Assembly: GCA_964016885.1 (NCBI GenBank)
Contig: OZ024741.1
Location: forward strand, 135,222,001-135,286,000
Length of the DNA: 64,000 nucleotides
Source of the DNA: Eledone cirrhosa
Taxonomy: Eukaryota
Reading direction: 5' to 3'
Shown here one piece after another: positions 21,548 to 62,402 of the stretch. Both the position numbers and the translations under genes were made by a program. The notes beneath the pieces are model-generated. The model saw nothing but the letters and a program-made list of their open reading frames with translations, was not told the DNA's origin and searched no databases. How positions within the stretch are numbered: the first letter of the stretch is position 1; each line of letters begins with the position of its first letter.

Positions 21548-21571
21548 ATATATATACATATATATATATAT

Positions 21572-23525
21572 AAGACGAATACAAAAAACGTCCTCATTCG
21601 TTCATCGGACAAGGCAATTTAAAACAGTGGAATATTTGAAAAATCTCCTCAAGAAAGGCAAAAGTTTAACGGGCAAAAAAAAAAAAAAAAGAATTTAACG
21701 GGCAAAAAAAAAATATATATATATATGGGTATGACACAAGACACATTCAAAATACGTTATTACTCACATGTCGCATCTTTCCGACATCCTGAAAAAAAGA
21801 TTTACAACAGCTCTGGCTAGCAGAATATGGGATTTGAAAGACCAAGGTATCCAATATAAATTGGATTGGTCAATTTTGAACCAATCTAAAGAATATGCAA
21901 GAGGAACAAGAAGATGCACACTCTGCATAAGTGAAAAATATTGGATTTTACAGAACCTTAACTTGCCTAAATGCAAAAACAGAAATTTTCACCAGTTGCC
22001 CACACATGAAATCACATTTGCTTTCCAGCTCATATAAACTTAACTCACTTTCAGATACTTATCCTCCATAGACTCTTATTCTTCACTTTCCTTAAATTAT
22101 CCTCTTTACAGACTTCCCTTTCTGATTTACTTTCATTTTTAACTTTATTTTTATTTTTATATTTATTTTTACTTCACCTCCACCAGTGACCCTGCCACCT
22201 ACTTTTTGATTCACTTACCTAATATCTTCACATTCCACATTTTACTTCCCCATTTTCTTTCACTACCTGATATCACATGTCACTTGCGTTTTCAACTCCA
22301 GATATATTCTGTTGTTTCGCAGCCGCCTTTATATTTGTACTCATTTATTCATACGGCTGGTTTATAATTTGTATCTATGCGTGTGAGTGTGCATGTGTGT
22401 GTATGCGTTCTATATATGTATACGAACGCCTCCGTATGTGTGCGTGTGTGTGTATATATGTGTGTGTATGTGTGTTTTTATATCTATGTTTTTTACATAC
22501 TTATATATACGTGTGTGTGTGTGTATGGGTGAATGTATGTGTATATGTATGTATGTATATATATATATGTATGTGTATGTATGTGTGTATATGTATATAT
22601 ATATATATAGTCAGGTACGTACGTGTGATTAGATATACATGTGCCGATATATATATATATATATATGTGCTTCGTGTGTATGTATGCGCGCCTCTGTATG
22701 TATGTACGCATGTATGTGCTTTTGTCTGTACGTATTTATATATATATATATTTATATATATATGTGTGTACGTACGAACCTATGTTTGTTTTCTTTTTTT
22801 CTAGTGTTAATTTATTATTGATAACATCTCCCTCTTACTTTCTCTTTGATTAAAAAATTTTTTCATTCTCATATATTGTTTCATTTTTATACGTGTATCG
22901 AGCCTCAGACTGACACTCCTTTGACTAATACACTCCCTTCCCTGTATATCATTCGCATATATGTGATCGCGCGTGTGTGTGTGTTTATACGCGTGCTTTC
23001 ATACTTGTATGTGTATATATTTAATACCTGAATCTGTATGTATGTTAACTATATTATCTTACAATTTCTTTTTCAACTTATATTATATACGTATTTGTGG
23101 TCACACACACACTGATATGCTTTCCCTCATATATGTACTTACGCACACATTTTCACTATACACATGCATTTGTACATACACAGATATGTACATTTGTGAG
23201 TGAATATACACACATTTATACACATACCCTAACTATATTTCCTTATTTTTTTTATATATCTCTTGCATTACTTTTATTTATATATTTTTTTTGCCCGTTA
23301 AACTTTTGCCTTTCTTGAGGAGATTTTTCAAATATTCCACTATGTTTTAAATTGCCTTGTCCGATGAACGAATGATGACATTTTTTGTATTCGTCTTATC
23401 GGGAAACCTCTGGTAATGAGGTAATTATATTGAATTGTTTATTATACATTAAATTTAGCTCTGGTACTTACATAGAGCACTCTTCACTCCTATGGCTTTT
23501 TCAATTTTCAACGGAAACTTCAATA

Positions 23526-23527
<2 letters not shown>
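21572..23527 (+). mobile_element. 5'-truncated Penelope-like element (GIY-YIG C-terminus plus long 3' UTR/pLTR) with inverted pLTR piece at its 5' end
   Basis: GMTQDTFKIRYYSH...KRFTTALASRIWDLKDQG...RRCTLCISEKYWIL (21727-22030). Colinear with the reverse complement of 59308-60960. Segment 21572-21712 is the reverse complement of 23283-23398. TA tracts at both ends. Confidence 0.9.
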
Positions 23528-23596
<69 letters not shown>

Positions 23597-28150: not shown

Positions 28151-28202
<52 letters not shown>

Positions 28203-28206
<4 letters not shown>

Positions 28207-28400
28207 AACGAGTAGGACCCCGACGGCTGAGCTCAGGCCGTTTCGACGGGTAATTCTGGACTCCAGAATTAGCCGTCGAAACGGCCTGAGCTCAGCCGTC
28301 GGGGTCCTACTCGTTCCTACTACCCACTCTACTACCCTAAGTATTGAGTACTTTGGTGCGTTATGGTCCACCTGGTTCCTTACCACATTTCCTTCGTTAT
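28203..28400. mobile_element. TA-embedded palindromic module (arms 28203-28319) plus unique tail; reverse-oriented copy at 43487-43691, fragment at 34510-34550
   Basis: TAGGAACGAGTAGGACCCCGACGGCTGAGCTCAGGCCGTTTCGACGG / reverse complement; each arm holds the hammerhead 3' half GAAACGGC-CTGAGCTCA-GCCGTC. Confidence 0.85.
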
Positions 28401-28455
28401 ATATATATATATATATATATAGTGAGAAAAACCACAGACCCTCCATCTCAACTCA

Positions 28456-56489: not shown

Positions 56490-56936
56490 CTAACAGCGCT
56501 GCGATCGGATGTGGCTTTTTAGCTCAGCCAATGATCTAAAATGTCTTGCACAGAGTCGGCAACCAAAACATTCACTGGGAATAGCCGGCTGTGGTTGGAG
56601 TTCATGTACTTTTGCATGTCGCTTGAGCCCTCCTGCTGATTTACATTCTCTACCACATGTTTGGCAAGCATGATGAGTAGCACCTCCAACAGCAGCCTGG
56701 TAGTCAACCACTGGTCTTACTTTATGACTGCGAAGATGACTTTCGAGTCCAGCTCTGCTTAGGCAGAGTCTCGCACAGACGCTGCATGTCAGCACCATAG
56801 GAGGACCCTCGCCGTCTGGAAGTGCAACAGCAATGCCCTTCCTCACATCCCGCTTTATTTTCTCGTATGCGATTCGAGATGCCTCAAAGGCAACTTTTCC
56901 CTCATATACATCTCCATTTATTACGATCAGCAGCAA
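56490..56936 (-). pseudogene. RTE C-terminal extension with three C2H2-type zinc fingers (second frameshift)
   Basis: CSVCARLCLSRAGLESHLRSH; CQTCGRECKSAGGLKRHAKVH; CRLCARHFRSLAELKSHIRS(Q). Confidence 0.85.
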
Positions 56937-57852
56937 TATTTTCCCATGTATCAGCAGAGATGTTAGCGTTTTTCAAAGAGGCCTTCAAGGAATCCTTATA
57001 CCTCTTTTTTGGTTTATGTGGCGGACGTTTTCCTTTAACCAACTCTCCATAAAAGAGTTGTTTTGGTATTCTAGAATCCTTCATCCTGGCAAGGTGACCA
57101 CTCCAACGGGGTCGTTGCTTAAGCACAAGAGCTTCTATACCGTCACACATAGAGCTTTCCAAAATCTCGACATCACTGATGTGGTCCCTCCAGTGAACGC
57201 CATGGATCAGTCTGAGACACATCTGATGGAAACGCTCCAATTGCTTAAGGTGGTGTCGATATGTGACCCAGGTCTCGCAGGCATAAAGAAGACAAGAGAG
57301 CACACATGCCTTGTACACCTTCACCTTTGTACTCCTGCATATGTCTCGCCGACCCCAGAGTCGCCTTTCTAGCTTTCCGAAAGCATCACTTGCTTTCCTA
57401 ATCCTAAGTGAGATTTCACTGTCAAGGTTGCCGTATCGATTGACAGTGCTTCCCAGGTAGACAAAGTGATCAACCACTCCAAGTCGTTTACCATACATAT
57501 AGATATTTGGTTCAGTGTACTGCTTACCAGGAGCAGATTGGTACATGACGACGGTTTTCTTGAGACTGACAGTCAATCCTAGGGCAGTGCAAGCGTCAGA
57601 AAATGCATTCAAAATGTGCTGCATATCACTCTCTGTGTGCGCTACAAGATCGCAATCATCTGCATACAAGAGGTCTCTTATTATTGATGTAAATACTTTT
57701 GTCTTTGCAGCAAAGGGCCTGATGTTAAATATGCTGCCTGAGGTTCGATATCGGATGTAAACACCATGCTCGCAATTCCTGAATGCAATACAGAAAACCA
57801 TTGCAAAGTATATGGCAAACAGGGTCGGTGTTGGAATATCCCCCTGTTTCAC
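56902..57852 (-). pseudogene. RTE reverse transcriptase, C-terminal part (frameshifted from the upstream piece)
   Basis: KQGD.PTPTLF, LLYADD, FVYLGS, LLYACETW, RWSGHLARM, RIPKQLFYGEL. Confidence 0.95.
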
Positions 57853-57875
57853 TCCATTTTTTTTACTGAGATAGG

Positions 57876-58680
57876 CTACGACATGTTACCTCCGACATTA
57901 ACCCAAGCCTTGATGTCGTCATGGAAAGACCTAAATAAAGCAAGGAACTTATCAGGGAACCCAAATTTCTGGAGAACCTTCCATAATGCATCTCTGTTAA
58001 CAGTATCGAAAGTTTTTGTCAGATCGACAAAAACCTGATACAGATCCAAACCTTGTTCCATGCACTTCTCCTGGAGATGTCTAGCTGAGAAGATCATATC
58101 AGTAGTGCCGCGTCCAGCACGAAAACCAGATTGACTTTCAGGAAGAACACAATCTGCAATGTGTGTCAGCAGACGGTCCAGAAGCACCCTACATAAAACT
58201 TTCCCTACGACAGAAAGCAATGATATACCTCTGTAGTTCCCACAATCATTCCTGTTACCCTTTCCCTTGTACAAGACCACCATTACTGCATCTCTCCAGT
58301 CCTCAGGTACGGATTCATTAGCCCATATCCTGCCAAACAAAGAGTGAAGATATTGCAGGAGTCTCTCACCACCATATTGTAGGAGCTCAGCATGTATGCC
58401 ATCCATACCTGGAGACCTTCCACTGTTCAGCTTCAAGATAGCTACTGCAACCTCCACAAGCGTCGGAGGTTCTGCGAGAGCTACTTTCACAGGGCTTTCT
58501 GGAATGAGATTGAAGAAAACTTCACTGACGACAGGCGGCTGATTCAAAAGATCATCAAAGTGCTCTCGCCACCTTCGTAGAATTTCCTGTGAGTCACGAA
58601 GAAGTTCTTTGCCATCCTTGCTGCGAAGCGGTGTCACCAGATAAGAAGACGGTCCATAAACCTCACGCAAGAGACTGTAC
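57876..58680 (-). pseudogene. RTE reverse transcriptase, N-terminal part
   Basis: RWREHFDDLLN, GRSPGMDGIHAELL, YKGKGNRNDCGNYRGISLLSVVGK, LPESQSGFRAGRGTTDMIFSAR, FVDLTKTFDTVNR. Confidence 0.95.
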
Positions 58681-58763
58681 AACATTTTCTATTGAAAGAA
58701 TCTTTTTCCTTTCTACTATTTGTTTTTATATATATTAACTCGTGTGTGACTTTTCTACATTCG

Positions 58764-58818
<55 letters not shown>

Positions 58819-59030
58819 CTTTCCCTGAGTTCAGTCTTTTTCGTTGGTATGGCAATGCGGCTGGACTGCCGGTCGCTATATTTGATTTGCAAAGCTGTCT
58901 AAACATATTGTTATAACCCTGGGGTATTATTCTCCATCGAGTGCTAAAGCTACATTCCGAATCTGCATTCGTTAGCTTAGCCGCAGCCTAAAGCTTCGTT
59001 AATGCTGTACTAAAATTTGTATATATATAT

Positions 59031-59251
59031 GAGTAATAATAATAAATTTGAAGACTAAAATCCAAAGAGGGCTCGATAAGGATATATATATATCAAATAT
59101 ATAAGAACCGTAGAGAAAATATTTATTAAAATAACAGATTAAAGTTTAAGCAAAGAATCGCTGCTTTCACCCTTAACGGGATCTTCTGAAAGTTTCAGAA
59201 GATCCGTTAAGGGTGAAAGCAGCGATTTTTTGCTTAAACTTTAATCTGTTA

Positions 59252-59259
<8 letters not shown>
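59031..59259. mobile_element. Second copy of the 8180-8443 module; hammerhead-like arm
   Basis: Palindrome 59124-59259; arm consensus CAGAAGA TCCC GTTAA GGGT GAAA GCAGCGA TTC; (TA)n on both sides. Confidence 0.8.
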
Positions 59260-59312
<53 letters not shown>

Positions 59313-60605
59313 TGAAGTTTCCGTTGAAAATTGAAAAAATCATAGGAGTGAAGAGTGCTCTGTGTAAGTACCAGAGCAAAATTTAATGTATAATAAACAA
59401 TACAATATAATTACCTCATTACCAGAGGTTTCCCGAATAAGACGAATACGAAAAACGTTCTCATTCGTTCGTCGGACAAGGCAATTTAAAACATAGTGAA
59501 ATATTTGAAAAGTCTCCTCAAGAAATACAAGAGTTTAACGGGCAAAAAATATATAAATAAAAGTAATGCAAGAGACATATAAAAAAATAAGGAAATATAG
59601 TTAGGGTATGTGTATATGTATATAATATGTGTTGAAAAAGAAATTGTAAGATAATATAGTTAACACGCATCCAGATACAGGTATTAAATACACATACGAG
59701 TATGAAAGCACGCGTATAAACACACACACACGCGCGGTCACTTATATGCGGAAGATAAAGAGGAAAGGGAGAGTAATAGTAAAAAGAAGTGTCATTCTCG
59801 ATATATGTATAAAAATGAAACAATATATGAAAAAAATGTTTAAATCAAAGAGAAAGTAATCAATTAACACTAGAGAAAAGAAAACAAACATAGGTACGCA
59901 CGTACACACATATATATATGAAAAAATATTTATACACACAAATACGTACAGACAAAAGCGCATGCATGCGTACATACATACACACGAGGCACGTATATAT
60001 ATATATATATATCGCCACATGTATATCTAATCACACGTACGTACGCGACTATACATATACACCCATACATACATATACATATACACACATATACATACAC
60101 ATACACATACATTCACCCGCATACACACACACACGTATAAATAAGTATGTAAAAAACATAGATATAAAAACACACATACACACACATATATATACGTACG
60201 CACGTACACATACGGAGGCGTTCATATACATATACACAACGTATACACACATAAGCACACTCACACATATAGATACAGATTATAAACCAGCCGTATGAAT
60301 AAATGAGTACAAATATAAAATCGACTGCGAAACAACAGAATATATCTGGAGTTGAAAACGCAAGTGACATGTGATATCAGGTAGTGAAAGAAAATGGGGA
60401 AGTAAAATGCGAAATGTGAAGATATTAGGTAAGTGAATCGAAAAGTAGGGGGGGGGGGGGGGGTTACTGGTGGCTGTGAAGTAAAAATAAAAATAAAAAT
60501 AAAAATAAAAATAAAAATAAAAATAAAAATAAAAATAAAAATAAAAGTAAATCAGAAAGAGAAGTCTGTAAAGAGGATAATTTAAGGAAAGTGAAGAATA
60601 AGAGT

Positions 60606-61208
60606 TTATGGAGGATAAGTATCTGAAAGTGAGTTAAGTTTATATGAACTGGAAAGCAAGTGTGATTTCATGTGTGGGCAACTAGTGAAAATTTCTGTTT
60701 TTGTATTTAGGCAGGTTTTTGGTGATTTAAGGTTCTGTAAAATCCAATATTTTTCACTTATGCAGAGTATGCATCTTCTTGTTCCTCTTGCATATTCTTT
60801 AGATTGGTTCAAAATTGACCAATCCAATTTATATTGGATACCTTGGTCTTTCAAATCCCATATTCTGCTAGCCAGAGCTGTTGTGAATCTTTTTCCTGGA
60901 TGTCGGAAAGATGCGATATGTGAGTAATAACGCGTTTTGAATTTGTCTTGTGTCATACCCACATATCGTTTGCTGGTGGCTGGTTGGTTGTTGCTGATGG
61001 TTGTCACTTTAGCCGCATATACAATGGCTTTGGTGTTGCATTTACCTTGTAATGGGCATTCACTTTTGACTCTACAGGAGCAATTTTGATGTTCTCTGGG
61101 TGATTTCTTATTGATGATATAAAATTTAATAGGTGGACCGCAGAAGTAGTTAATGTTGACACAGTTTCTATTGAAGATCTTATAGTATCTATATGTTCTA
61201 GGGTTGTC
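60606..61208 (-). pseudogene. PLE linker plus GIY-YIG endonuclease; frame open for 200 codons
   Basis: My upstream extension of ORF 60606-61007 reads PRTYRYYKIFNRNCVNINYFCGPPIK...NCSCRVKSECPLQGKCNTKAIVYAAKV...YVGMTQ...RRCILCISEK...LNTKTEIFTSCPH. Confidence 0.85.
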
Positions 61209-61835
61209 CTAAGTTGTTGTATAGGTATTTTTATAGCCCGCTGTATGCCATTTTCTATAAGTAGAGATAGGTATTTTTGTTTGAGCAAAAATTCTCTCAG
61301 TTCTGTTAGGCGTTTGTTCCTGGTATTCGTATCTTCTAGAATGGTACAAATTCTTCTGGCTAGGCAGTATGGCATGTTGCGTTGTGTATGAGGTGGATGG
61401 CACGACTTAAAATTTAGATATTGATGGGTGTCTGTGTATTTATAGTATATATCCGTGGTAATGGTGGTGTAGTTTTTGATTACCATTATATCTAGGAATA
61501 GTAATTTGGTACTACTCATCTCTTTTGTAAAATGGAGAGCTGGGTGTAGGTTATTCAGAAGGATATTGAACTCATCCAGAGTATCTAGAGATTCTGTCCA
61601 GATGATGAAACAGTCGGCATGGTATCTCTTCCAAGACTTTTCAATGTACTTGCTAAATTCAGTACTATATTTTTCCTCTATTTCTTGGTAGAGTTGTTGT
61701 TCTATGTATCCCATTACAGAGTTCGCGTAAACGGGAGCAAACTCGTTCCCATAGCTGTACCGCTAATTTGGATGTAATTCTTTCTATTGAAGAAGAATGT
61801 GTCGTTTTCCAGAATAAGTCTGACTGCGTCTAAAC
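61204..61835 (-). pseudogene. PLE reverse transcriptase core/thumb (Neptune-like motifs), frameshift near 61740
   Basis: LILENDTFFFNRKNYIQISGTAMGT; APVYANSVMGYIE; LLNNLHPALHFT; TDIYYKYTDTHQYL; PYCLARRICTI. Confidence 0.85.
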
Positions 61836-61930
61836 AAACCGGAAATGTCTGCACTTAAACGTATACAAAATGTTAAAACAATAATAATCAAACAAGCAGA
61901 TAAAGTGGGGTGCAATTGTTATAATGGAGA

Positions 61931-62079
61931 CTCTGGTCTCTTCCCCTTCCCCCACTGTCCCCGGACCTGCAAGTCAAGGATCAGCCTCCACAGCCACCTT
62001 CACACCCACGGCAGACGGGAACAACAATGAAGAAGATGTCATCATCGTTTACGATGGACAACCAAGATATATATATATA
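61931..62079 (+). mobile_element. RTE LINE extreme 3' end (single C2H2 remnant plus terminus and (AT)n tail)
   Basis: FPFPHCPRTCKSRISLHSHLHTH, then GTCATCATCGTTTACGATGGACAACCAAG(AT)n. Confidence 0.75.
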
Positions 62080-62402
62080 GTAAATGAGTGAAGAATTCTG
62101 ATGATTTGGTCGGGTATCAACTGTAATTAAAATCGAGTGAGGTAGCTTCTTGCGATCAACGATTTTTAGACACACCGGACTAATGAAACAATTGTGAATA
62201 CTTTGAATAAACCCTATTGTACAGCCGACCACGTTATTCTTCACTCATTTATAATTATTACTCCAAGAACCGCTTACCCAGGAACTTTCTTAAATCGGCC
62301 ACCAAACTTCTTATTGAGTCAAACAACGCCGAATGTTAAAATTATACTCGATACAGAGTACTCATAACCTCTACTTGGATTACCTTAAACGATATCTTAA
62401 CT

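Follow-up and report, generated by a model that had tools for sequence, protein, structure and literature searches.

Among the Penelope-like elements treated by Craig et al. (2021; PMC8557442), the Hydra clade is marked, in the accessible text of that paper, by RWK and DKT motifs and a divergent motif 4 in the reverse transcriptase (RT), by a CxCx5C linker, by an endonuclease (EN) without CCHH but with CxxC and CxH motifs, and by (TA)n as its target. The same text gives a CX2-5CxxC linker as common to Neptune and Nematis, treats Neptune as paraphyletic and puts forward an ancient exchange of EN between Penelope clades as a hypothesis. For L1, target deletions of 1–10 kb and microhomology at 5′-truncated joints are described in the accessible parts of PMC11702581. 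No earlier report of a Neptune-Hydra chimera was found in the literature searched, most subscription papers and bioRxiv supplements lying outside the search; the accessible parts of PMC13282606 and of 10.64898/2026.07.22.740005 hold nothing on chimeras.

The window analysed here (64,000 nucleotides of contig OZ024741.1, positions 135,222,001–135,286,000, of Eledone cirrhosa, which has a (TA)n-rich genome of 3.0 Gb) contains a Neptune-type RT joined to a Hydra-type EN. The fusion is a single-copy, out-of-frame and dead join of two ordinary, abundant Penelope-like families, called family N (Neptune-type) and family H (Hydra-type) below, both of which are complete families with an EN or RT of their own. 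The two parents, the breakpoints, the microhomology, the copy number of one, the frame and the dead RT were all established directly. In order, the whole unit consists of (TA)n, the Hydra part and a Neptune piece pointing left, a Neptune piece and a LINE tail pointing right, and again (TA)n:

59257–59308, no strand: (TA)n target, adjoining the Hydra-type copy on its 3′ side (TRF array 59257–59312; the family H terminus adjoins at 59309)
59309–60605, minus strand: 3′ UTR of family H to its natural 3′ end, from alignment with family H copies
60606–61203, minus strand: end of the family H ORF, with thumb tail, CxCx5C linker, GIY-YIG EN without CCHH, CxxC and CxH; open to the stop and 5′-truncated
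61201–61203, minus strand: CCC microhomology at the N/H joint, 3 nt, out of frame, from comparison of family N and family H copies with the window
61201–61833, minus strand: family N piece A, RT motif 4 to thumb, without the 5′ part and without 1.24 kb at the 3′ side
61833–61928, plus strand: family N piece B, a 96-bp inverted arm from the DKG region, its source lying about 565 nt upstream of piece A
61929–62066, plus strand: 3′ end of a LINE (family R), 5′-truncated and bluntly joined to piece B; an RVT_1 domain lies upstream in family R locus L083
62067–62079, no strand: short (TA)n at the LINE 3′ end, the right boundary of the unit, read from the sequence

The locus thus arranged resembles the complex L1 insertions in the accessible parts of PMC11702581 in having same-orientation pieces from different RNAs and opposite pieces joined at their 5′ ends, and further in the microhomology of 0–3 nt and the kilobase target deletions seen there. 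It differs from them in its Penelope-like enzymes, in its (TA)n target and in drawing its pieces from three retroelement families.

The RT motifs listed in the first-pass annotation were all recovered on the minus strand, namely GTAMGT, FAPVYAN (once a 1-nt deletion near 61743 is allowed for), HQYLNFKSCHPPH, PYCLARRICTI and QQLRTT, as were, in a different frame, those of the EN, PRTYRYYKIFNRNCVNINYFC...CSCRVKSECPLQGKC...IVY...YVG...CILCISEK...CPH, with a stop at 60606–60608. Its description of the RT as Neptune-like and of the EN as Hydra-like also holds on comparison with the motifs in the accessible parts of Craig et al. (2021; PMC8557442). Chance resemblance is ruled out, as each half has many genomic copies at 94–99 % identity, and the two sets of copies belong to different families. 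The junction itself was correctly noticed, but the Hydra-type part does not start at 61208: family N copies match the window to 61201, with a few chance bases beyond, and family H copies match it from 61203, which puts the true joint at the CCC at 61203–61201. Around this triplet family N reads GGACAA-CCC-AAGG and family H ACATTT-CCC-TAGA, while the window reads GGACAA-CCC-TAGA. The codon phases of the two halves differ by one base, making the joint out of frame. Counted from the SCHPP that both families share, the break falls after 68 residues in family N and 95 in family H, with IPF at 78 in the former and IWF at 69 in the latter; about 35 residues, the IPF/IWF motif among them, are missing at the joint. 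Overlooked in the first reading were the change of RYLDD to RYHAD, the absence of RT motifs 1–3, the inverted 96-bp Neptune piece at 61833 and the LINE 3′ end at 61929.

A query spanning the junction found, besides the window, 39 scored matches that covered its RT side only, and all 29 of those fetched run on as ...GGACAACCC-AA... into a linker of their own. Long family N copies have their own CCHH-type EN, a C-terminal GIY-YIG domain (PF01541; LIYCIKCPNC...YVG...VH...GH/NH), and carry both the CX2-5CxxC linker (KCNDSRCGTC) and the DKG motif (QADKGG). The RVT_1 domain of family N scores 27.6 bits in Pfam, just under the cut-off, and a GIY-YIG match is obtained as well. By eye, motif 4, thumb and linker are nearer to the Neptune rows than to the Nematis, Poseidon or Hydra rows of the alignment in Fig. 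S7 of PMC8557442, as far as that source is accessible. The putative placement of family N in the Neptune clade, made from motifs compared by eye, holds. The RT piece of the window shares 91 % identity with family N, and 28 % over 61 amino acids with family H. It lacks motifs 1–3, carries the 1-nt deletion near 61743 and has RYHAD for RYLDD; this RT is dead. Among the best 40 scored of 1086 candidates, the closest other copy of piece A is 94 % identical, and no closer genomic donor sharing its private changes was found in that set. Family N also has a young subfamily with open frames of at least 775 amino acids and near-zero divergence; at loci L095–L113 many of its copies differ by 0–0.3 %, and several form close opposite-strand pairs. 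The pair L171/L172 stands head to head with an inverted and partly duplicated internal block (reference positions 2283–2850). Head-to-head inverted copies at the 5′ end, which the accessible text of PMC8557442 describes for the Neptune clade, occur in family N too, whereas the window differs in having two internal pieces only and no 3′ end.

The EN-side query gave 39 best other copies that are 96–97 % identical and begin at 61203. Upstream of the equivalent of 61203, family H copies read ...LDKHFPRTHRYYKIFNRN and carry their own RT, with MRWKA (in the DNA of L115–L118), FSDKTKN and the divergent motif 4 FDVSMGSFDSADVC (L072). Their linker is of the CxCx5C type (CSCRVKSEC), their EN has no CCHH (IVYAAKV...YVG, with no Cys between), and CxxC and CxH surround the conserved E and N (RCILCISEK...LN...CPH). 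The targeting of (TA)n is seen at 59309, where the 3′ end of the element adjoins the array. By motif comparison, the putative assignment of family H to the Hydra clade holds. By eye it is close to Hydra-1_Obim, a member of that clade, but it measures about 3.6 kb with a long 3′ UTR as against 2.5 kb for that element in the accessible parts of PMC8557442. The window copy differs from elements of the Hydra clade in being 5′-truncated and fused to a foreign RT. Its EN found no real match in the family N protein, and Pfam returned none for the Hydra-type EN or RT. A hammerhead-like stretch near 59400–59480 contains core-like words recognized by eye only (fold z = −1.4; no Rfam hammerhead match), and the Rfam matches at the locus are miRNA-like only and below gathering. 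A second family H insertion, 5′-truncated and with a short inverted arm of its 3′ end, lies at 21570–23590 of the window.

Genome-wide, the 32-mer across the joint has one match at up to two mismatches, whereas the parental words have 499 (family H, 28-mer) and 387 (family N, 25-mer) exact matches. In 78 fetched loci with 81 family N matches there is no case of a continuation into the Hydra EN. Likewise, 119 fetched loci with 121 family H matches show no Neptune RT in front of the match; the samples have a few copies in common. Of the two outcomes offered in the first-pass annotation, a one-off recombinant is therefore the correct one; its alternative, a domain-swapped lineage, was refuted by this genome-wide junction copy check, with one copy joined out of frame at non-homologous positions. 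That a lineage with Neptune RT and Hydra EN had been propagated, the window being a frameshifted copy of it, might be read from the two breaks, which both lie in the thumb-linker region and miss a homologous crossover by no more than about 35 codons. Against it speak the one copy of the joint in 3.0 Gb and the sampled parental matches, the exactly three C in both parents, by which the frame is accounted for without a later indel, the loss of about 35 residues including IPF/IWF, and an RT without motifs 1–3 and without the catalytic motif. The single copy, the phase shift, the missing residues and the defective RT exclude a propagated hybrid for this assembly, and we give such a lineage almost no credence.

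An assembly artefact or a chimeric long read could also leave a single joint. No read or contig spanning the joint is among those listed for four sequencing runs, and a second haplotype is absent from the assembly; however, these runs do not test the joint, since no more than 24 % of the words occur in them and the private alleles of the locus are mostly absent. Over the public runs the best share of locus words was 0.24, with no RNA run among the matches listed. The two unrelated families share a microhomology of 3 nt at the joint and not a long overlap, which argues against an artefact, as do the private substitutions on each side of the joint and the recurrence of like fusions elsewhere in the genome, and this explanation seems very improbable to us.

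The remaining parts of the unit bear on how it arose. Pieces B and A correspond to reference positions 1597–1691 and 2255–2883 of family N; they overlap by 1 nt at 61833 and stand in the order expected from twin priming. Inverted arms without a 3′ end, in the same twin-priming order, are native to both families (L028, L144, L145, L140 and L079), so that piece B needs no special cause. The joint between piece B and the LINE (61929) is a second foreign joint and is also single-copy in the genome. Family R, which we take to be RTE-like from its motifs, is followed by (TA)n at the identical base after its 3′ end in all ten family R loci listed. Because the elements target (TA)n, a target duplication is not recognizable at the locus. 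Neither the window nor the next 9.9 kb contains the 1.24 kb of Neptune 3′ sequence that piece A lacks, and simple nesting of one element in another without a deletion was rejected on this ground. At 59020–59256, between (TA)n tracts, lies a head-to-head palindrome of a very abundant short element; it was tried as the Neptune 3′ end and rejected, as it is not the family N 3′ end. Beyond the right boundary (62080–62399) lies another short repeat, bounded by (TA)n and containing an inverted repeat; in L117 a relative of it is fused to a family H 5′ end. On the minus strand at 56740–58688 there is a broken LINE with an RVT_1 domain, presumably RTE-like, which is 5′-truncated at a (TA)n.

The two halves were compared for their divergence. 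Outside CpG sites, the Neptune pieces differ from the family majority at 23 of 685 positions and the Hydra part at 24 of 1296 (p = 0.043). Strictly private changes number 16/723 against 13/1321 (p = 0.031), and with larger samples 13/723 against 6/816 (p = 0.067); for the coding parts alone the contrast is non-significant (p = 0.15–0.21). The terminal branches measure 0.033 (Neptune) and 0.017 (Hydra), and a branch as long or longer is found in 2 of 17 position-ordered Neptune copies and in 11 of 29 Hydra copies. The Neptune part is thus about 1.8–2.4 times more diverged (p 0.03–0.07, depending on the sample), and it contains a frameshift, as opposed to the open Hydra ORF. Judged by these differences, the Neptune part seems the older of the two, although a Neptune subfamily outside the sample, or a diverged transcript, could have inflated the age gap. 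The Hydra part (59309–61203) is rich in transitions (21 of 26 substitutions; p = 0.008 against other family H copies); the transition/transversion contrast between the halves (p = 0.009) arises from this and was set aside as evidence.

The first-pass annotation had left the origin of the joint between a template switch and a deletion; the divergence leans towards a deletion, without settling the choice. The history that we think probable is a later Hydra insertion at an older Neptune tail, with loss of the 1.24 kb of Neptune 3′ sequence through a microhomology join at CCC. A short LINE tail would already have stood in a (TA)n. A Neptune copy would then have inserted next to it by target-primed reverse transcription, 5′-truncated and with the end of its 96-bp twin-primed inverted arm joined to the LINE stub, after which a Hydra copy may have entered the (TA)n of the Neptune tail in matching orientation. 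In the last step, either the Hydra cDNA end would have annealed to CCC within the Neptune copy, so that the deletion formed part of the insertion, or the DNA between the two copies may have broken later and been repaired by microhomology-mediated end joining; these two variants cannot be told apart on present data. No empty, pre-deletion or second-haplotype allele was found in the assembly in a search with the right flank. Against this stepwise route, all four pieces are oriented like cDNA growing inward from two (TA)n ends, and a single event takes fewer steps.

Such a single insertion, in which (TA)n-primed reverse transcription on a Hydra RNA jumps at CCC to a Neptune RNA while the other DNA end primes further upstream on the same Neptune RNA (twin priming), has perhaps one chance in three by our judgement. 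One Neptune RNA would account for the order and orientation of pieces A and B, the joint carries its 3-nt microhomology, and same-orientation insertions from two RNAs are documented for L1 in the accessible parts of PMC11702581. A template switch predicts equal ages, however, against the excess divergence of the Neptune part, and no diverged donor with the Neptune private changes was found among the best 40 of 1086 candidates. The sense orientation is equally expected under a deletion: a later element targets the (TA)n with which an earlier one ends, so that orientation cannot separate the two. It is on the age evidence that stepwise insertion with a microhomology deletion is favoured over the switch.

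How usual such fusions are was judged from 89 position-ordered family H copies (90 fetched, with one duplicate dropped). Eight of them reach the locus edge, 7 are full-length with an upstream tandem end and 74 are truncated. The 5′ side of the truncated copies is an inverted H copy in 33 cases, a microsatellite, mostly (TA)n, in 24 and other DNA joined directly in 17. These 17 of 74 direct foreign joins without (TA)n become 13 when 4 that are doubtful by eye are removed. Family N was not found within 400 bp upstream of any position-ordered family H copy. In L132 (1 of 89), the 5′ end of an H copy is fused in the same orientation to another, 3′-truncated Hydra-type family through a microhomology of 2 nt, and the divergence of the two parts is alike (6.0 % vs 6.8 %, p = 0.64), which counts in favour of template switching. 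In L041 (1 of 29 top-hit loci), the H 5′ end is fused in the same orientation to another, 3′-truncated Penelope-like family through 3 nt, and the partner arm is more diverged and so looks older (5/173 vs 14/1448, p = 0.044), which counts in favour of the stepwise route. L117 and L231 are candidate fusions of like kind. With these other direct fusions in view, L132 and L041 included, the joint in the window belongs to a by-product that recurs in the genome. Two of the 29 top-hit loci had suggested that truncations cluster at the Hydra break, but such a hot spot found no support in the 90 position-ordered copies, the 5′ ends of which are evenly spread.

It is conceivable, though doubtful, that Penelope-like RTs jump between RNAs of different clades during insertion, with the joint in the window, L132 and L041 as fossils of such jumps. 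If they do, chimeras made in one event would supply the starting material for those RT-EN domain exchanges that the accessible text of Craig et al. (2021) proposes in the deep evolution of Penelope, and a rare in-frame chimera could found a new clade. Were template switching to hold over many loci, it would offer a present-day mechanism for the exchange of endonucleases between Penelope clades, and this genome, in which families have been amplified recently, would be suited to a test of cross-clade switching. On the most likely reading the import is little: hundreds to thousands of copies stand against this single dead junction, and several retroelements of the genome crowd into the same (TA)n; the fusion is a dead accident and no new hybrid element. 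Such loci also carry a warning, as consensus builders can create false Neptune-Hydra "hybrid" families from them.

Two further repeats were seen joined to Penelope-like copies. A short palindromic repeat lies at 28200–28421 of the window. At L026/L146 and L053 this repeat occurs again, there joined directly to a family N copy and to a family H copy, in each case at the truncated 5′ end. In L041 (positions 330–645), L261 and L262, an inverted arm of one and the same non-coding repeat stands head to head with a 5′-truncated third Hydra-type family at nearby positions; by eye this repeat has hammerhead-like words. The query itself favoured loci with this pairing.
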